Below, in pieces: positions 2,839 to 50,907 of a stretch of 64,000 bases of DNA. Numbering within the stretch: position 1 is the stretch's first letter; every line of letters starts with the position of its first letter. The translations under genes and the position numbers were made by a program. Source of the DNA: an uncultured Chloroflexia bacterium (GTDB lineage: Bacteria; Chloroflexota; Limnocylindria; Limnocylindrales; CSP1-4). The stretch is taken from positions 192,001 through 256,000 of the forward strand of contig CAVYBU010000008.1 in assembly GCA_963766735.1 (NCBI GenBank). The letters run 5' to 3'. The notes under the pieces were generated by a model. The model ran no database searches, was not told the DNA's origin, and worked only from the letters and a program-made list of their open reading frames with translations.

Positions 2839-3540
2839 ATGGCGAGGATTGCGGTCGTCGATGACGAGCAGGTGATCGCGGACGGGATCGCGGCGTATCT
2901 GCGGCGAGACGGGCACGAGGTTGACATCGCCGCAACCGCAGCCAGGGCGATCGAGCTCGGCAGGTCGAACCCGGACCTCATGGTCCTGGACGTGATGCTC
3001 GGCTCCAGCTCGGGGTTCGACGTCCTGCGATCCCTGCGGAGCGAAGGGCTGCGGGTCCCGGTCATCATCCTGAGCGCACGTGTGGACCTGGTGGACCGCG
3101 TGGCGGGCCTGGAGCTCGGCGCCGACGACTACGTGACCAAGCCGTTCGAGCCGCGGGAGCTCGTCGCACGGGTGGGTGCGGTGCTTCGCCGGACCGTGCA
3201 GGCCGAGAGTCCGACGGACGAGGCCGACCCCACGAGCGAGCCGCCGCGGGTGTTGGACCTCGAGATCGACACGGCTACCCGCGAGGTCCGGCGGGGCACG
3301 ACCGACGTGGCCCTGACACGCACGGAGTTCGATCTGCTGGTTGCGCTTGCGGAGCATCCGGGTCACGTGCTGTCGAGGGTTCAGCTCGCCGGGCAGATCT
3401 TCGGCGGCGCGTACGACGAGTGCGACCGCACCATCGACAGCCACGTGCGCAACCTCCGCCGGAAGCTGGGTGTCCGGCCCGATGGCCGCGAGTACGTGCA
3501 GACGGTCCGGGGGGTGGGCTACCGCCTGGCCCGCTCGTAG
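2839..3540 (+). CDS. OmpR/PhoB-family response regulator
   Basis: VVDDE, LDVML, GADDYVTKPF, winged helix TIDSHVRNLRRKL...TVRGVGY. Confidence 0.95.
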   Translation: MARIAVVDDEQVIADGIAAYLRRDGHEVDIAATAARAIELGRSNPDLMVLDVMLGSSSGFDVLRSLRSEGLRVPVIILSARVDLVDRVAGLELGADDYVTKPFEPRELVARVGAVLRRTVQAESPTDEADPTSEPPRVLDLEIDTATREVRRGTTDVALTRTEFDLLVALAEHPGHVLSRVQLAGQIFGGAYDECDRTIDSHVRNLRRKLGVRPDGREYVQTVRGVGYRLARS

Positions 3541-3615
3541 GCCGGCGAGACCGTGCGGGCCGGCTCAGAGCGGCGCCGCAAGCCGACCCTGCGGTCCTGC
3601 TCTAGACTGCGGCGG

Positions 3616-4338
3616 ATGCCCGGACCTGTGGCGCTCGTAGGCGCCGGTGAGTTCCTTGCTCCAATGGCCGAGTTCGATCGCGGTCTGCTCGAGGTGATCG
3701 GCCGTCCCCGCGCGCGGGTCGTGATCCTGCCCACCGCGTCCGCCCCTGACGGTGAAACCGCGTTCCGTGCCTGGGCCGATATGGGAACGGAGCACTTCGC
3801 GGCGCTGGGTGCCGAGGTGGAACCGATCATGGTCCGGGACGTTGCCGGGGGCCACGATGCCGCCGCGCTCCAGGCCGTGGGCGAGGCGGACCTCATCTAC
3901 CTGTCGGGCGGAGATCCGCGCCACCTGGTGCGGGTCCTCCTGGGATCGCCCCTGGGCGCGGCGATCGTGACGGCCAACGCGCGCGGCGCGATCCTCGCCG
4001 GGTGCTCGGCGGGCGCGATGGCGCTGGTCGGGCGGACGATGGACTTCCGGGTCATCCCGAAGCTGCGCCTTCCGTTGCCGTTCCCGATCCGCTGGAGGCA
4101 GGGACTCGGGTTGGTGGACGGCGTCGCGGTGCTGCCCCACTACGACGCGTGGCCGGAGCCGCTGTCCGCGGCCGTGGCGCTCCAGGCGCCGGGAGGGTCC
4201 GTGATCATGGGGATCGACGAGGACACCGCGGCGGTCGGGCGCGGCGGAACGTGGCAGGTGCACGGGCGCGGGCGCGTGACGGTGTGGCGCGGCCGCCACC
4301 GGGAGCGGTTCCGCAAGGGGGACGCGTTCCGCCTCTGA
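3616..4338 (+). CDS. Peptidase S51 (cyanophycinase/PepE-like, class I GATase-like fold)
   Basis: ILPTASA, YLSGGD, nucleophile motif GCSAGAM, LPHYD, GIDEDT. Confidence 0.85.
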   Translation: MPGPVALVGAGEFLAPMAEFDRGLLEVIGRPRARVVILPTASAPDGETAFRAWADMGTEHFAALGAEVEPIMVRDVAGGHDAAALQAVGEADLIYLSGGDPRHLVRVLLGSPLGAAIVTANARGAILAGCSAGAMALVGRTMDFRVIPKLRLPLPFPIRWRQGLGLVDGVAVLPHYDAWPEPLSAAVALQAPGGSVIMGIDEDTAAVGRGGTWQVHGRGRVTVWRGRHRERFRKGDAFRL

Positions 4339-43764: not shown

Positions 43765-46266
43765 TCAGAGGGCCGCGACCGCAGCCTCCAGGCGCGTCGT
43801 CGCCGTCGCGTGGTCTGTGTCCGCGTCGAACCAGATCGGGTCGCCGATCACGAACTCCACGTCGCCGCGGAGCCGGCCGGGGAACCGCCGCCGATCGATG
43901 ATCGACATCTCGTTGATCCGCAGCTTGACCGGCACGACGGGCATGGCGCCCTCAACCGCGATGAGGCCCGCGCCTGCCTTGAACGGCTGGAGCGGTCCAC
44001 CCAGGGTCAGCCGCCCCTCGGGGTAGATGAGCACGTTGAACCCCTTGTCCAGCCGTGAGCCCAGCATCTCGAGGCTCTTGCGGACGCCGCCCTCGCGCTG
44101 CAGCGGGAACGCGTTCGCGAGGACCGAGGCCAGCACCCCCTGCACCGGGTGCTCGTAGATGGTGTCGGCCGCGGCCGCCACGGACAGCTTCCAGCGCACG
44201 GCAAATGGCAGGCGGCTGAGGATGATCGCGTTGTCCAGGTGCAGGCAGTGGTTCGGCGTGAACAGGACCGGTCCCTCCACGCCCGCGAGCCTGTCCAGGC
44301 CGGTCACGCGGACCCGGTAGAACAGGAGCACGAACGGGTACATCAGCAGGATCTGGAAGGCCAGCCCGACGGCTCTGACCGCGGGCGACAGCGGCCAGCC
44401 CCAGGACCGCTGTCCGCGCTTGGCGCCACGAGCCGCCTCCACGAGCGTGACCAGGTCCTTGACGGTGGCGTCCGGCTCAAGCGCGTCGTCATCCACGAAG
44501 ACGCCCAGCTCTTCCTCGATCACGCTGAGCAGCTCCACGCGGCGAAGCGAGTCCAGGTCCAGGTCGCTGGACAGGCGGGCCGTCTCGGCGACGGTGGAGG
44601 GATCGAGGCCCGCCACGCTCGCGATGATGGCCGTGACCGGATCGACGTCGGCATCGGCGCTGGCCCGTTGGGGATGGGAGGCCGCCGCCGGCAGGGGTGC
44701 CGTACCGGGCTGCTCCAGCTCCACGAGCCGGGCAAGGATGTCCGGCTTCCGGACCTTGAGCGTGTGAGTTCGGGGCAGGTCGGGATCAGGCCACACTGTC
44801 GTCCCGCGGATCCGCTGGTGGGGAGCCAGTCGGGCGTTGGCGGCGCGCACGACCTCCTCGGAAAGGGTGGGGTCATCCATCAGAAGCACGGCGTGGACCC
44901 GGAGTCCGGCGCCGAGCGGCCAACCCACGACCGTCGCGTCCCGGAGCCGGACGTCCTCGCGGAGGACCGCTTCCACGTCCTCCGGGTAGACCTTCTGGCC
45001 GTCGGGCAGGGCGAGCATGTCCTTCTTGCGACCCCTGAACGTGAGCATGCCCGCCGGGGTCATCGCCCCCAGGTCGCCGGTGTGGTACCAGCCGTCGGCG
45101 TCGATGGAGGCGGCCGTGGCCACCGGGTTCTGCCAGTAGCCGGCAAAGCGGCCCGGTCCCCTGGCCAGGATCTCGCCGTCGTCGGTGATCCGGACCTCGA
45201 CACCGGGGATCGGCTCGCCCACGGTGCCGAGGACGTTCCGCTCCGGTCGCGTGAAGCTCACGACCGGGCCCATCTCGGTCTGGCCGTAGCCCTGGAGGAC
45301 GTCGATCCCCATGTCCTGCCAGCGGGTCGCGACGTCAACCTCGAGCGCCGAGGCTCCGACCCCGATCGTGTGCAGCCGGCCGCCGAACTCCGACAGGACC
45401 GGCCGGAACAGCAGGCGCTTGATCCGCCGCGGGGAACGCTGCGCGACGCGGTGCAGGGTCTCGAAGCGCGAGCGCTGGCCTGCCTGGTCCACCTTGCGCT
45501 CGATGGCCGCATCAAGGAGGCGAAGCCCCTGGGGAACGATCAGCAGGACCGAGACCTTGAAGTCGCGGAACGTGCGGAAGAGGACGGCGGGCTGGCGGCT
45601 CACGGGGTAGACGATGCTCGCGCCCACGATGAGCGGTCCGATCAGTCCCAGGACCTGCTCGTAGAGGTGCGAGAGGGGCAGGATGGACAGCAGCCGGTCC
45701 TTCTCGTTGAACGGCAGGACCTGCGTCATCGAGGTGGCGCAGCCGACGAGGTTGCCGTGGCTGAGCATCGCGCCCTTCGGCTCGCCCGTGGTCCCACTGG
45801 TGAACACGATCTCCGCTAGCGTGTCCCGATCTACCGGGACGGCGGGCAGCGGCTCGGCGCGACGGGCGAGATCTGGGAGGGTCTCCAGCCACACGATCGG
45901 CAGCCCCAGCTGACGGGCCGACGCCTCGGTCTGGCGGGTCGCGACGACGATCGTGGCCCCCGTCTGGGCGACGATCTTGCGCCCGAACTCCACGGTGTGC
46001 CGGACGTCGAGCGGGACGGCGACGCCGCCGGCGTGGACGGTGGCCAGGAGCGCGATGCCCCACTCCGGGCGGTTGACGGCCCAGATGATCGCCCGGTCGC
46101 CGGGACGGAGACCGGCGTCGGTGAGCACCCTGGCGGCGCGGGGGACTATCGTCGCGAGATCGCGGTAGCGCCACGTCCGGGTCCGGAAGGACGGCCGGAT
46201 CATCAGGGCCGGGCGCGCGTCGAACCGTTGCGCGCTCTCCTGAACCAGCTCTTGCAGAGTCTCCAC
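43765..46266 (-). CDS. Acyl-adenylating ligase + ACP + PlsC-type acyltransferase fusion
   Basis: FTSGTTGEPKG, GYGQTE, YHTGDLG; carrier motif LDSL; NHCLHLD and YPEG. Confidence 0.9.
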   Translation of the reverse strand: METLQELVQESAQRFDARPALMIRPSFRTRTWRYRDLATIVPRAARVLTDAGLRPGDRAIIWAVNRPEWGIALLATVHAGGVAVPLDVRHTVEFGRKIVAQTGATIVVATRQTEASARQLGLPIVWLETLPDLARRAEPLPAVPVDRDTLAEIVFTSGTTGEPKGAMLSHGNLVGCATSMTQVLPFNEKDRLLSILPLSHLYEQVLGLIGPLIVGASIVYPVSRQPAVLFRTFRDFKVSVLLIVPQGLRLLDAAIERKVDQAGQRSRFETLHRVAQRSPRRIKRLLFRPVLSEFGGRLHTIGVGASALEVDVATRWQDMGIDVLQGYGQTEMGPVVSFTRPERNVLGTVGEPIPGVEVRITDDGEILARGPGRFAGYWQNPVATAASIDADGWYHTGDLGAMTPAGMLTFRGRKKDMLALPDGQKVYPEDVEAVLREDVRLRDATVVGWPLGAGLRVHAVLLMDDPTLSEEVVRAANARLAPHQRIRGTTVWPDPDLPRTHTLKVRKPDILARLVELEQPGTAPLPAAASHPQRASADADVDPVTAIIASVAGLDPSTVAETARLSSDLDLDSLRRVELLSVIEEELGVFVDDDALEPDATVKDLVTLVEAARGAKRGQRSWGWPLSPAVRAVGLAFQILLMYPFVLLFYRVRVTGLDRLAGVEGPVLFTPNHCLHLDNAIILSRLPFAVRWKLSVAAAADTIYEHPVQGVLASVLANAFPLQREGGVRKSLEMLGSRLDKGFNVLIYPEGRLTLGGPLQPFKAGAGLIAVEGAMPVVPVKLRINEMSIIDRRRFPGRLRGDVEFVIGDPIWFDADTDHATATTRLEAAVAAL

Positions 46267-46294
46267 GTCGGAATCCCTCCTCGTCGTCCGCCGT

Positions 46295-46978
46295 TCAGGT
46301 TCCTGGCCCGTTCGCAAGCTCCGAGAGCGTCCGCGCCGCATCCACGGTCAGCGGCGGGTAATGGGCGAAGACGATCACGTCGACGTCCAGCTCGGCCAGA
46401 CGTTTCAGGGACCGCTTCGCTGCCCGGTGGTCGTCGCTGTAGAGCGCGCTGGCGTGGGACACGCGTCCGAAGCGCCGCTGGAGCACGTCGCCCACGAAAA
46501 GCACCCGATCGCGGGCGCCGTACAGGCAGACGCTCCCTGGTGTGTGCCCCGGCGTGTGGACGACCTCGAGCCCACCGAGCACGGGCAGCACGTCTCCATC
46601 GCGGATCGGCGTGAAGTCGGGGAGCTCCGGGGTCATGGCTGCGAAGACGCGCCCGCGCGACGGGTGACGCAGCGCGGTCCGCCAGCCGGTCCGCATCGCC
46701 TCGCCATCGGCCGGATGGATGAGGACCTCGATGCCCATCGCCGCCAGTTCGCGCGCGCCGCCGGCGTGATCGGGATGCCCGTGGGTGCAGATGACGCGGG
46801 CGAGATCGCCGAGGGAACGATCGTGCCCAGCGAGCGCCCTCTCTATTCGGCTGCTCGAGCCGGCATACCCGGCGTCGATCAGCGTGGCTGGCTCCTCGTC
46901 CACCAGGTAGGCGCGGACGCGCACGAGCGACACCGCGTGGACGCGCGCGGGAACCGAAGCGTCGTCTCCCATCGCCAT
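46295..46978 (-). CDS. Metallo-beta-lactamase fold hydrolase
   Basis: THGHPDHAGG, TPGHTPGS, GD, FAH. Confidence 0.9.
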   Translation of the reverse strand: MAMGDDASVPARVHAVSLVRVRAYLVDEEPATLIDAGYAGSSSRIERALAGHDRSLGDLARVICTHGHPDHAGGARELAAMGIEVLIHPADGEAMRTGWRTALRHPSRGRVFAAMTPELPDFTPIRDGDVLPVLGGLEVVHTPGHTPGSVCLYGARDRVLFVGDVLQRRFGRVSHASALYSDDHRAAKRSLKRLAELDVDVIVFAHYPPLTVDAARTLSELANGPGT

Positions 46979-47046
46979 GCCCCTGTGACGCGAGTGGCCA
47001 CGATCCGTTGCGCCACGGCGTGCCCTCGCCCGTCTGGAGGGATTCC

Positions 47047-47082
47047 GCCGCATGGATCCCGGGCTGTCCAGATCCATGCGGC
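47047..47082. repeat. 12-bp perfect inverted repeat (terminator or operator)
   Basis: gccgcatggatc-N12-gatccatgcggc. Confidence 0.6.
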
Positions 47083-47123
47083 AGGGCGGCCCGGGGGTGA
47101 GCCCCGGGCCGTGACGGCTTGGC

Positions 47124-47504
47124 TCAGCGTGCGAAGTAGAGGGTCCGCGGGGCCGCGCGAGCTAGGTGTGCCGTCCGGGGCGGCGGACCGGTCGGGCGGC
47201 GCGGGCAGCCGTCATGCCGGAGCTCGAACGCCTCCACATGGGCGGGCCGCAGGCATCTTCGACGAAGCCCTCGAGCGCCGGATCGATGCCGTCCGAGCAG
47301 CCCGCGCCGCGCCGATCGATCACGATCAGCCGGGCGAAGCGTGCGAGGTCGTCCAGGAACGCGGCATACGGCGGGTACCGCCGGTTCCACTCGAGGCTCG
47401 AGTACCAGCTGGGCAGGTAGACCAGGTCGACGGGCCCGGTGCCCGTGATCTCGTGGCGATCGATGCCCCGCCCAGGGTCGCGTAGAGGATGTCGCGCGGC
47501 TCAC
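47124..47504 (-). pseudogene. Truncated N-terminus of a second hydrolase-cyclase gene
   Basis: RDILYAT...GTGPVDLVYLPSWYSSLEW...LARFARLIVIDRRGAGCSD, similar to the start of 47501..48865; frameshifted and ends after about 100 codons. Confidence 0.7.
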
Positions 47505-48865
47505 CCGCGAGTCTGGACCACCCGGTACAGGTGCCAGCGGTCCGGCACGCCCTTGAGCTCGTGCTCGTCGCGGTCCTCGTAGGCGATGCCGGAGCCCGCG
47601 GTGAGGTCCTTGACAGTGGAGGAGACCCAGACCTCGCCGGCATGCGCCAGCGCCCCCACCCGCGCCCCGATGTGGACGCCCACGCCTGCGACCCCGTGAT
47701 CGGCGCGCTCGACCTCGCCGGTGTGGAGCCCGGCCCGGATCTCGACCCCCAGGGGCCGACCGGCCTCGATGATCGCCTGGGCGCAGCGGATGGCCCTCGC
47801 GGGGCCATCGAACGTGGCCAGCAGGCCGTCTCCCGTGCTGTGGACGAACTCCCCCCGGTAGCGGGCCACGATCGCCTTGGCGGCCCGGTCGTGCTCGTCG
47901 ATGAGCCGGCGCCACTTGGCATCGCCCAGCACGGCGGCCGTGGCGGTGGAGTCGACGATGTCGGTGAACAGGACCGTGGCGAGGACGCGGTCGAAGGACT
48001 CCTGCTCCTCGCGGGTGGCGCGAACGAAGTCCCGCAGCGCGCCGACCGCCGACTCGATGTTCGAGGGCCACGGCGGGAAGTCGCCGGCCGGGACCATGAT
48101 GGTCTTGGCGCCCGGGATTCGGGCGGCGAGATCCTCGCGGGCGCGCAGCACGTCCGGGTCCTCGGGTTCCTCCGTGAAGATGGCGAGCGTTGGCACGTGG
48201 ATGCTCGGGCAGACCGCCCGGAAGTCGAGCTCCTCGAACATCTGGTTGAAGGCGATCACGTCGCCTGGAGAGCCCATGTTCCGGCAGGTCCTCGCCGCCC
48301 ACCGGACGGCGACCGGGTCGGCCGCGATTGATGGTGCGCCCATCTGGGTCATGAGGTCGCCCGCGCGTTCCTCGAGTCCCCACGCTTCCTCGAGGGTTGC
48401 CCTCCACGCCCTCGTCTCGCTGGGGTCCGCGCCGAACGGATAGTCCAGGGTGCGCGTCACCTTCGCCTGAGCATTCCAGAACGCGAGCGCGACCGCCCGG
48501 TCGGGGTAGGTCGCGGCGAACATCGCACACAGGGAACCCCCGTCGACCCCGGCTCCCCAGAGCACCGTACGTTTCGACCCCGCCGCGTCGAGAACGGCGC
48601 GGAGGTCATCCATCCGGGTCTCGAGGTCGGGCAGACCCTTCGAACGATCGGACAGGCCCACGCCCCGCTGGTCGAGCATGATCAGGCGCGCGAAGGACGC
48701 CATCTCGCGGTGGAAGCGCGCGACCGGCGGATGCTCCCAGAGCAACTCCAGGTGCGAGAACCAGGGCGAGATCCAGAGCAGGTCGACGTCGCCCTGCCCG
48801 AACACCTGGTAGGCGATGTAGGCGCCGTCGTTGCTGCGCGCATAGCGTGTCTCGGGGATGTTCAC
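47501..48865 (-). CDS. Alpha/beta-hydrolase-fold + class III adenylate/guanylate cyclase (LipJ/Rv1900c-like)
   Basis: TRYARS...IAYQVFG, DQRGVGLSD; TVLFTDIVDST, TGDG, GLHTGE, VHIGAR, LKGVP. Confidence 0.92.
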   Translation of the reverse strand: MNIPETRYARSNDGAYIAYQVFGQGDVDLLWISPWFSHLELLWEHPPVARFHREMASFARLIMLDQRGVGLSDRSKGLPDLETRMDDLRAVLDAAGSKRTVLWGAGVDGGSLCAMFAATYPDRAVALAFWNAQAKVTRTLDYPFGADPSETRAWRATLEEAWGLEERAGDLMTQMGAPSIAADPVAVRWAARTCRNMGSPGDVIAFNQMFEELDFRAVCPSIHVPTLAIFTEEPEDPDVLRAREDLAARIPGAKTIMVPAGDFPPWPSNIESAVGALRDFVRATREEQESFDRVLATVLFTDIVDSTATAAVLGDAKWRRLIDEHDRAAKAIVARYRGEFVHSTGDGLLATFDGPARAIRCAQAIIEAGRPLGVEIRAGLHTGEVERADHGVAGVGVHIGARVGALAHAGEVWVSSTVKDLTAGSGIAYEDRDEHELKGVPDRWHLYRVVQTRG

Positions 48866-48930
48866 GTGTTCACCACCCAGTACAGGTGCCAGCGGTCCGG
48901 CACACGCCGTTCCAGGCGTATCGCGTCTCG
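48862..48930 (-). pseudogene. C-terminal remnant of an upstream cyclase paralogue
   Basis: VPDRWHLYWVVNT-stop; 31/32 nt identical to the 3' end of the intact gene; GTGA overlap with its start. Confidence 0.75.
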
Positions 48931-49363
48931 GGTCGTCTGGTCATTGGCGCCTACCACTTGATCGCTGTCGCCGCGCTCCGGGATCCCGCACCTAGCGACC
49001 GCCCCCGTGCGGCGCGTCCAGCAGGTCGGCGGAATCTAGCACCGAGGACCAGTCGCAACTCGCCTGCGGAGCGCTGGCACCGGTCTGCCGCCGCCTGAGC
49101 GCTACACCTGAGCGCGAGCGACCGAACGCGGGCAGAGCTCACCAGCGGGGCACGGCGACGCGCGCGGGGCGGTTCCGCTGCTCCAGGGAGCGCTCTCGGT
49201 CCGATGGTCGGGCGGTCGACGCCGCAGGGGTGAGCTTCGGGCCGTAGCCGCAGGATCAGCGCGCGGAAGCCGGCGGCGGCGACCGCACGCGGTGCGCAGG
49301 ACTTCACCGCCGCGGGCGACCTCGAGGTCGCACGCTCGGTGCGCCGCTGCCGGGGCTGGCGAA

Positions 49364-49393
49364 TTGACGCCGCGGCGCGCATTCCGATATGCT
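49364..49393 (+). promoter_or_regulatory. sigma70-type promoter of rho
   Basis: TTGACG-N18-TATGCT. Confidence 0.65.
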
Positions 49394-49524
49394 CCAAGCA
49401 TCCCCACCGGCCGCGTGCGACGGCACCCCAATTCCGCACGAGTACGGCCCGTGGCGCGACCCATTCTCTCGCCGCCGGATTCCGCCGCCGACGGGACCCC
49501 GCCCTCCGAGGTGCGTGCAACCCC

Positions 49525-50907
49525 ATGCCGAACGGCCCCGACCAGCGCTCCAGCCGCAACCGCCGGCCGCGCCGTCGCCCCCAGTCCACCAATCGCCTGC
49601 CTGTCACCGAACAGGACGAGGTAGCAGAGCTCGAAGCCGCCCGCGAGCGAAACGACCTGGACATCCGCGACTTGCGCGAGATGTCCGTCAAGGAGCTCCG
49701 CGAGGTCGTCACGGGCCTCGAGGTGGACATCGAGTCGACAGACCGCCGCGACGAGCTGGTGGACCAGATCCTCCAGGCCCAGACCGAGCGTGCCGGGCTG
49801 GACTACGCCTTCGGCATCCTGGACATCGTGGACGAGGGCTACGGCTTCATGCGCCGCCACGGGCTGCTGCCGAGCCCGGATGACGTCTACGTCTCCTCCA
49901 GCCAGGTGCGCCGCTTCGGCCTGCGCATCGGCGACCGCGTCACCGGCGCCGTCCGCGCCCCGCACGAGGGCGAGAAGTTCTGGGGCCTGATCCGGGTCGA
50001 CAGCGTCAACGGCGTCGATACCGACACCGCCCGCCGCCGCCCGCATTTCGGGGACCTGACGCCGATCCACCCGATCGAGCTGATCAACCTCGAGTCTGAC
50101 CCGAAGAACCTGAGCCAGCGGCTGGTCAACCTGGTCAACCCGCTCGGCAAGGGCCAGCGCGCCCTGATCGTGAGCCCGCCCAAGGCCGGCAAGACGATGC
50201 TGCTCAAGAGCATCGCAAACGGCATCAGCGACAACTACCCGGACATCCTCCTCATGGTCGCCCTCATCGGCGAGCGTCCCGAGGAGGTCACGGACATGCG
50301 CCGGTCCGTCCACGGGGAGGTCATCAGCTCCACCTTCGACGAGCCGACGGAGAACCACACGCACGTTGCGGAGATGGCGCTGGAGATCGCCAAGCGCCAG
50401 GTCGAGACCGGCCGGGATGTCGTGATCCTGCTGGACTCGATCACCCGCCTGACGCGCGCGTACAACCTTGCGCTTCCGCCCAGCGGCCGGACGCTCTCGG
50501 GCGGCATCGACCCGATCGCCCTCTACCCGCCCAAGCGCTTCTTCGGCGCCGCGCGCAAGATCGAGGAGGGCGGCTCTCTCACGATCATCGCCACCTGCCT
50601 CGTTGACACCGGGTCCCGGATGGACGATGTCATCTACGAGGAGTTCAAGGGCACCGGCAACTCGGAGCTCATCCTGGACCGGAAGCTGGCGGAGAAGCGG
50701 ATCTTCCCGTCGATCGACGTGCAGCGCTCGGGCACCCGCCGCGAGGAGCTCCTTCTCGAGGAGGGCACCCTCAAGATGGTCTGGACGATGCGCCGGATGC
50801 TGTCGGCGGTCGGGACCAACGAGGGGATCGAGCTCCTGCTCAACCGGATCGCGAAGACCGAGAGCAATGCGCAATTCCTGGCGCAGCTGACCAAGAGCGC
50901 GGAGTAG
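49525..50907 (+). CDS. rho: Transcription termination factor Rho
   Basis: [60 protein letters not shown]. Confidence 0.98.

Follow-up and report, generated by a model that had tools for sequence, protein, structure and literature searches.

How does a gene come to stand between broken pieces of its own relatives? The question is raised by a locus between rho and pyrG in an uncultured Chloroflexota bacterium of the Limnocylindrales (lineage CSP1-4; assembly GCA_963766735.1, contig CAVYBU010000008.1, positions 192,001 to 256,000), where one intact gene, here called B, encodes a protein with an alpha/beta-hydrolase domain and a class III cyclase domain, the architecture of mycobacterial LipJ. 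That 64-kb stretch is referred to as the window; coordinates are positions within it, and the array genes and remnants described here are all on its minus strand. An initial annotation of the locus had read it as a collapsed tandem array that once held at least three coupled copies of LipJ-like genes. Our analysis bears this out: an upstream copy (A) has kept both its start and its end, the end of A overlaps the start of B, B is intact, and a third copy (C) begins at the B stop codon. Judged from these comparisons, the locus very probably descends from an array in which at least three diverged LipJ-like genes overlapped head to tail, and it keeps the scars of that history.

Remnants of two further copies flank gene B

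The fragments on either side of B (the 5′ and 3′ ends of A and the 5′ part of C) are homologous to the family, lie on the same strand as B and follow one another head to tail. Upstream of B, the segment 48905-49047 is 82.5% identical over 143 nt to positions 12719-12861 of the relative G012 and 87% identical over 141 nt to positions 5884-6024 of contig L062 from the relative G073, and in both genomes the match spans the start of the first LipJ-like gene, which adjoins rho, with its first 13 codons and the region just upstream. At the protein level, 12 of the 13 residues of this 5′ remnant match the start of the G073 gene (E 8.8e-6). The opposite end of copy A is recognizable as well, 33 nt of it matching the 3′ end of the gene in G073 at 94% and in G070 at 91%. 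The two remnants meet at 48905/48904, where they are out of frame with each other and share about 1 nt, and the interior of a gene of roughly 1.35 kb in this position is gone. The initial annotation had seen here only the last codons of a paralogue; the terminal 13 codons do align, and the remnant turns out to be more than a 3′ stub, as the first 13 codons and the region upstream of them survive too. The GTGA overlap of stop and start that had been described is also present, the remnant ending in ...VVNT* with a TGA (48864-48862) that overlaps the GTG start codon of B (48865-48863). A longer 3′ remnant was considered and rejected: a tblastn match reaching to 49011 (24/56 identical, 12 gaps, E 3e-4) reflects the terminal motif only, and 48905-49047 is a gene start with its upstream region and not a further part of the A 3′ end.

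On the other side of B, 25 of 55 residues of copy C are identical to residues 19-73 of B (E 5e-13 in a local search, 1.7e-10 genome-wide), so that the flanks, which might have proved unrelated to the family, do carry homology to it. The downstream paralogue of the initial annotation is thus a true family member, with a length of about 83 codons (47252-47502) in place of the roughly 100 first proposed. The left edge given for the feature, 47124, marks the end of homology to G073 and not the end of the paralogue. The junction between B and C is homologous to the ATGA overlap of g1 and g2, the LipJ-like genes of G012; two 1-nt gaps relative to that junction have removed the start codon of copy C, and its homologous frame now has none. 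The frame is further broken by a 1-nt deletion at 47454/47455. This frameshift is polymorphic: in the population sampled in sequencing run X3 an additional base behind 47454 puts C back in frame, and because one natural population has this base the frameshift must be young. We considered whether copy C is the orthologue of g2 and rejected this, since C is no closer to g2 (66% nucleotide identity) than to B (67%; 63-64% to g1) in genomes that are 81-83% identical at third codon positions. By these comparisons copy C represents a paralogue type of its own.

Copy C ends abruptly at 47252/47251, where it is fused to the tail of vapC. The segment from 47251 to 47124 is 83% identical to positions 9890-10017 of L062 in G073, a genome in which vapC and crp are both complete, and in run X1 a co-occurring population continues at 47251 into an intact vapC. 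The crp gene has no orthologue elsewhere in the window's genome, the best match being 31% identical. Population variants are seen in the scar region at 47215, 47193 and 47270; a 1-nt insertion behind 47215, present in one of two X1 contigs, corresponds to the G073 state of the vapC tail. Related populations with an intact vapC share the same samples with this one. The features of the locus are collected in Table 1, and three of them could easily be miscalled by annotators: the open reading frame (ORF) at 48870-48944, an apparent "ORF" at 47124-48530 and the fragment at 47252-47502.

Table 1. Genes, remnants and repeats of the LipJ-like locus (window coordinates).
Feature	Position	Strand	Description
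Copy A, conserved upstream region (probable promoter/leader)	48945-49047	minus	aligns upstream of the first LipJ-like gene of relatives
Copy A, 5′ remnant	48905-48944	minus	ATG (at 48944) and first 13 codons, MTRRPETRYAWNG
24-codon ORF formed by the copy A scar	48870-48944	minus	stop 4 nt ahead of the B start
Copy A, 3′ remnant	48862-48904	minus	last 13 codons, VPDRWHLYWVVNT, and TGA overlapping the GTG of B
32-nt direct repeat, upstream copy	48872-48903	none	within the copy A 3′ remnant
Gene B, LipJ-like, intact, 454 aa	47501-48865	minus	Pfam, PDB and orthologue P0001 matches
Gene B, alpha/beta-hydrolase domain	~48011-48865	minus	PF00561
Gene B, inter-domain linker (REEQESFDRVLATV...)	48000-48030	minus	identity to G012 g1 jumps from ~50% to 87-94% (nt)
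Gene B, class III cyclase domain	~47501-48010	minus	PF00211
32-nt direct repeat, downstream copy	47517-47548	none	3′ end of gene B
Copy C, 5′ fragment, ~83 codons, third paralogue type	47252-47502	minus	starts directly after the B stop
vapC tail, last ~14 codons (PIN-domain toxin of a toxin-antitoxin pair)	47211-47251	minus	fused to copy C at 47252/47251
crp/fnr-family regulator tail, last ~12 codons and stop, convergent	47126-47164 (approximate start)	plus	aligned to the G073 crp 3′ end

Gene B has the architecture of LipJ

With both Pfam domains present and LipJ as its best relative of solved structure, B deserves the label LipJ-like as far as its predicted architecture is concerned. The N-terminal alpha/beta-hydrolase fold is detected by PF00561 at 31.1 bits (cutoff 25.8) over residues 59-151 and the C-terminal class III cyclase by PF00211 at 29.7 bits (cutoff 21.9) over residues 291-446. 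Among solved structures the cyclase domain matches LipJ best (1YBT/1YBU, E 2.9e-45, residues 289-447), and residues 53-286 match the esterase structures 4UHC/4UHH (E about 1e-6). The blocks FTDIVDST, GDGLLATF and VHIGARV of B align with the same blocks in 1YBT (FTDIV.ST, GDG..ATF and VHIGARV in the 1YBT/1YBU alignment), and these may hold the metal-binding Asp pair and the transition-state residues. By homology, the product of B is most likely a cAMP-making LipJ-like cyclase.

LipJ itself (Rv1900c of Mycobacterium tuberculosis) has the same two domains, an alpha/beta-hydrolase and a class III adenylyl cyclase. B differs in belonging to another phylum, Chloroflexota, and in lying in a tandem array with overlaps of stop and start codons. 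A further point in this comparison, read by eye from an alignment, is that B has GVDGG (residues ~100-115, 48500-48560), with Asp in place of the nucleophile Ser, where its paralogue P2 has the nucleophile elbow GESEGG. Genes of the g1 type carry VDT or QDT at the position aligned with GESEGG, again by eye. The hydrolase domain of B may be non-catalytic, or may use the Asp.

The only other full-length LipJ-like gene of this genome (G000) encodes 448 aa, is 48% identical to B and is found at C2:356915-358234, where it stands alone about 1.4 kb off the contig end.

Fuller arrays and further scars in relatives

Copy number at this locus in related genomes, which the initial annotation had named as a check, proved variable. 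We located rho in 64 of the 70 genomes of the genus and compared 12 loci, namely those of the ten genomes with the most similar Rho, that of G012 and one metagenome contig. No LipJ-like gene lies between rho and pyrG in eight of them (G003, G076, G063, G014, G079, G082, G058 and G068), three have one (G073, G070 and L077), and G012 has one complete gene and a 150-codon fragment of a second. This second copy (L030, 14165-15110) breaks off at codon 150, where it runs into the C-terminal half of a gene for an LLM-class oxidoreductase, a gene that G073 has in complete form. A relative thus bears a deletion scar of independent origin.

Adjacent LipJ-like genes are also found in metagenomes. Seven contigs were analysed (L074-L077 and L079-L081), L072 and L078 having been set aside as copies of the G012 contig on account of their equal lengths and match coordinates. 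Five of the seven carry two adjacent LipJ-like genes of unlike hydrolase types. Fuller arrays than that of the window are thus seen in relatives, both at the same locus in G012 and in these five contigs. Pair junctions were read in three of the five, L074, L079 and L076: in L074 and L079 the stop codon of the upstream gene overlaps the ATG of the B-type gene (ACATGA), and in L076 there is no overlap, the TGA ending one base before the ATG. The B-type gene of L079 (2878-4216) is matched in two frames (2878-3426 and 3428-3724), indicating either a frameshift or a sequencing error. A scan of genome contigs gave two loci, one of them the G012 contig; L031 (G004, 44% match) had no rho or LysM matches.

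The interval between rho and pyrG is a hypervariable island. The two genes are nearly adjacent in G003; in G073 the order is rho, DinB-like, LipJ-like, two LLM oxidoreductases, vapBC, crp, GNAT and pyrG. Between the crp scar and pyrG the window instead has an MBL-fold hydrolase gene (46295-47077) and a gene at 43765-46341 for an 858-aa protein with AMP-binding, phosphopantetheine-carrier and acyltransferase domains (acyl-AMP ligase/ACP/acyltransferase). The two occupy the part of the island that holds crp and GNAT in G073, and neither was found in any of the 12 related loci. On the rho side, the reading frame in the 5′ part of rho (49339-49660) stays open for about 100 codons ahead of the conserved core, with an Arg/Pro-rich stretch, and G073 is alike in this.

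The junctions are present in independent assemblies

A locus of this kind invites the suspicion that its mosaic gene and its repeat are chimeric, the reads of co-occurring strains or paralogues having been joined at conserved stretches. The source genome was binned from a metagenome (35 contigs, 93.85% complete with 4.22% contamination), and related populations do co-occur in the samples. On 46900-49400 we placed Logan contigs from four runs, each belonging to a different study, and counted a junction as bridged when at least 31 nt lay on each side of it; one of the runs is possibly the source sample, so that at least three are independent. The junction of the two A remnants, the A/B junction and the linker at 48014 are bridged in all four runs, and the B/C junction in three, X5 having no cover there. 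One X2 contig alone, spanning 47051-47358, bridges the C/vapC and crp/MBL junctions; the X1 contig there has 29 nt on one side, short of the required 31. The independent contigs that carry the junctions are 95-100% identical to the window. Moreover, the A remnants share about 1 nt at their joint, which cannot come from k-mer overlap, and the longest exact repeat at the locus found by repeat search is 24 nt. We therefore give almost no credence to an assembly artefact, which the initial annotation had named as a way in which its reading could fail.

The same contigs drew attention to a 241-nt segment just upstream of rho (49118-49358). It is skipped by an X2 contig (joint 49117->49359), and 49168-49335 is uncovered in all four runs. 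A second copy, 73.6% identical, is found in the genome at C21:103854-104078, and the segment has no Rfam match. Possibly this is a small non-coding element that is repeated or mobile; for the array itself we draw nothing from the gap in cover, which we take only as the mark of a variable segment.

The cyclase halves of neighbouring genes are homogenised

The two domains of these proteins have different histories. The hydrolase types are deeply split, B-type and g1-type being about 33% identical in amino acids over codon-aligned positions, and the cyclase domains cluster by organism clade. Between B and g1 of G012, the hydrolase domains are 35% and the cyclase domains 89% identical (amino acids); the corresponding values are 32% and 93% for L077 and B, and 51% and 88% for G070 and G073. 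The switch between B and g1 is abrupt and falls at the linker, where a blastn match begins at 48014 and continues through the cyclase domain at 87-94% nucleotide identity. Trees of the two domains conflict: in approximately unbiased (AU) tests, groups defined by the hydrolase domain are rejected on cyclase data (p 1e-4 and 4e-13), and a cyclase group is rejected on hydrolase data (p 7e-72).

The same pattern is visible within one contig. The two neighbours L075a and L075b have nucleotide identities of 31-74% in the hydrolase and 75-93% in the cyclase domain, and they share exact runs of 41 nt at the linker and at a catalytic block. A second kind of switch is found in the single gene of G070, which resembles g1 in its upstream region and first codons and g2 in its body, the change occurring within an N-terminal box in which g1 and g2 share 90-92% identity. 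We infer from these comparisons that the cyclase halves of neighbours are homogenised, from the linker onward, by gene conversion or unequal crossing-over.

A mosaic such as B could also have been made in one step. A foreign or ectopic fragment, consisting of the 3′ end of a gene X together with a B-type start and hydrolase domain, would have replaced codons 14 to about 285 of g1 in a resident array of two genes (g1 and C), the exchange being anchored by homology in the linker and cyclase domain at one end and completed by an illegitimate join at 48905/48904 at the other. This is the main rival to an array of at least three genes, and it fits the anatomy exactly, accounting for the g1-type 5′ end, for the abrupt switch and for a cyclase domain that resembles g1 from 48014. 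It also draws support from the genus, in which none of the 69 other genomes has a B-type hydrolase domain closer than 42% (amino acids), and from the metagenome arrays, whose X-to-B junctions show the similar ACATGA overlap. The rival is weakened by P0001, a full-length orthologue of B from another population (on a contig of 1747 nt), which matches B at 87% over the hydrolase and 92% over the cyclase domain and shares its VVQT.G tail. Because P0001 has the whole of B, the combination of a B-type hydrolase with this type of cyclase must be older than the lineage of the window. In addition, the homogenised cyclases of adjacent unlike copies in L075 explain the mosaic without transfer, and B-type hydrolase domains in related metagenomes form a graded series (87, 75, 73, 71 ...%, down to 50% identity), as vertical descent predicts. 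Replacement in one step therefore appears unlikely to us, and descent of B within the array accounts better for these data.

No breakpoint maps to the 32-nt repeat

The repeat search recovered the direct repeat of the initial annotation at the same two coordinates, 47517-47548 and 48872-48903, with 31 of 32 nt identical (97%) and a spacing of 1355 nt. Only these two sites in the window match the 32-mer with up to three mismatches (0.00 expected from 100 shuffles). The search of the genome that had been suggested found nothing beyond the array: a 22-nt exact core of the 32-mer occurs twice in the 3.62-Mb genome, both times at these sites, and the reversed core, used as a control, gave no match.

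Direct repeats flanking a one-gene unit of 1355 bp in a hypervariable island might suggest that B is a mobile cassette and that the repeats are attachment sites or target-site duplications. The repeats are coding 3′ ends of homologous genes, and they lack the recurrence at other genome sites that would be expected of a cassette. No integrase or transposase was found among the ORFs flanking the array, judged from ORF translations and from Pfam searches of the MBL hydrolase, the acyl-AMP ligase/acyltransferase, rho and B (the LysM/M23 neighbour was labelled by eye from its translation), and the overlapping tandem pairs of the family lack such elements. A cassette is accordingly an extremely improbable explanation.

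The initial annotation had further supposed that the conserved 3′ end may serve as the substrate for expansion and contraction of the array, and the mapped breakpoints give this no support. The deletion junctions lie at 48905/48904 and 47252/47251 and the homologous switches at the linker (48014) and in the N-terminal box; none lies in the 32-mer. Both deletions that collapsed the array are illegitimate. Nor is the match of 31 of 32 nt in itself a sign of recent exchange, since the block is 91-94% alike between orthologues (91% to G070 and 94% to G073, over 33-34 nt).

What, then, keeps the two copies nearly identical? Selection may do so in place of recombination, acting on a C-terminal motif, (G)VPDRWHLY.VV, and possibly also on the ribosome-binding region of the next gene, whose overlapping start the block closely precedes; this would make the 32-mer the slowest-evolving part of every copy. 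The conservation between orthologues speaks for this, as does the position of every mapped breakpoint outside the block. So does the pair L074a/b, in which the homologous 3′ block is the longest exact run (41 nt) between cyclase domains that are otherwise 57-85% identical. Selection at the protein level alone does not explain why third positions are conserved too, and the ribosome-binding role of the block is a candidate one. Gene conversion of the whole cyclase domain, which is demonstrated in this family, would likewise keep the block identical. We put selection at slightly less than an even chance. Being among the best-conserved stretches between neighbours, the 3′ block remains a possible candidate as a recombination substrate.

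Discussion

Several observations weigh against the view that the locus is what is left of an array of at least three genes. The ancestor is reconstructed: three complete copies are present in no genome or contig that we examined, and none of the 12 rho–pyrG loci has three LipJ-like copies. All comparisons involve metagenome-assembled genomes of 50-98% completeness, and the hydrolase tree had already been seen when the clade sets for the AU tests were named. The two remnants of A are not demonstrably parts of one gene, and the deletion between them may span more than one copy. Copy C has no close intact relative, the best being g2 of G012 at 53% (amino acids); one database match, at 51%, came from a word-based search of longer proteins that is weak as evidence of absence. 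The arrays of close relatives also differ in content. As for expression, the sigma-70 scan, a weak tool for this phylum, found no promoter-like site on the minus strand, and the stretch was found in none of the RNA runs. The scan for promoters and terminators gave nothing on that strand, and Rfam gave no match in 46900-49800.

We nevertheless regard a shrunken array of at least three genes as the best account of the locus, and its history probably ran as follows. An illegitimate deletion inside copy A, the first in the array, whose 5′ end is orthologous to the first gene of relatives, removed about 1.25 kb. A second deletion took the part of copy C beyond codon ~83 and, with it, the genes that lay further downstream, leaving of vapC the last codons; crp went in a further rearrangement. 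B is thus probably the sole working gene of the array. It is probably transcribed from the old promoter of A and translated by coupling to the 24-codon ORF of the A scar, whose stop lies 4 nt ahead of the B start. In relatives, the same cyclase homology probably yields hybrid single genes and loss of copies, and the array shrinks differently in each lineage.

Unequal crossing-over and gene conversion are textbook causes of concerted evolution and contraction in tandem gene families, and the locus shares with such families the homogenisation of part of the unit, hybrid genes, variation of copy number among strains and deletion scars. It departs from the general case in two respects. Homogenisation stops sharply at a domain boundary (about 33% versus about 90% amino acid identity), and the two deletions of the window are illegitimate rather than homologous.

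Another parallel is found among mycobacterial cyclases. The N-terminal domains of Rv1318c, Rv1319c and Rv1320c are of other kinds (membrane/HAMP), unlike that of B. As described in the excerpted text of PMC3961136, these three M. tuberculosis genes are adjacent class III cyclase paralogues, predicted to be orthologues of a single M. smegmatis gene, and Rv1319c and Rv1320c form an operon (PMC3961136). To the extent of that excerpt, they resemble the array described here as adjacent paralogous class III cyclase genes, and neither ghost copies nor homogenisation at the level of domains is described there.

A bolder reading, which we consider doubtful, is that LipJ-like arrays are sites of recombination-driven shuffling of sensor domains. 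The cyclase half, held almost identical between neighbours by gene conversion over the tract that runs from the sharply bounded linker to the 3′ block, would serve as portable homology by which very different hydrolase-like "input" domains are swapped, fused or deleted, and each strain would then have its own repertoire of input domains. Translationally coupled neighbours with matched cyclase halves could pair as heterodimeric cyclases, and the ghost of A might have been retained because it supplies B with a promoter and a coupling leader ORF.

Regardless of whether such shuffling occurs, the event at this locus is ordinary gene-family turnover that is unusually legible, and it changes no general principle. 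It offers a clean and well-documented example of the contraction of a bacterial signalling-gene array. Most useful is the sharpness with which concerted evolution stops at the domain boundary, which suggests that selection or the mechanics of recombination treat the two halves of LipJ-like proteins differently.

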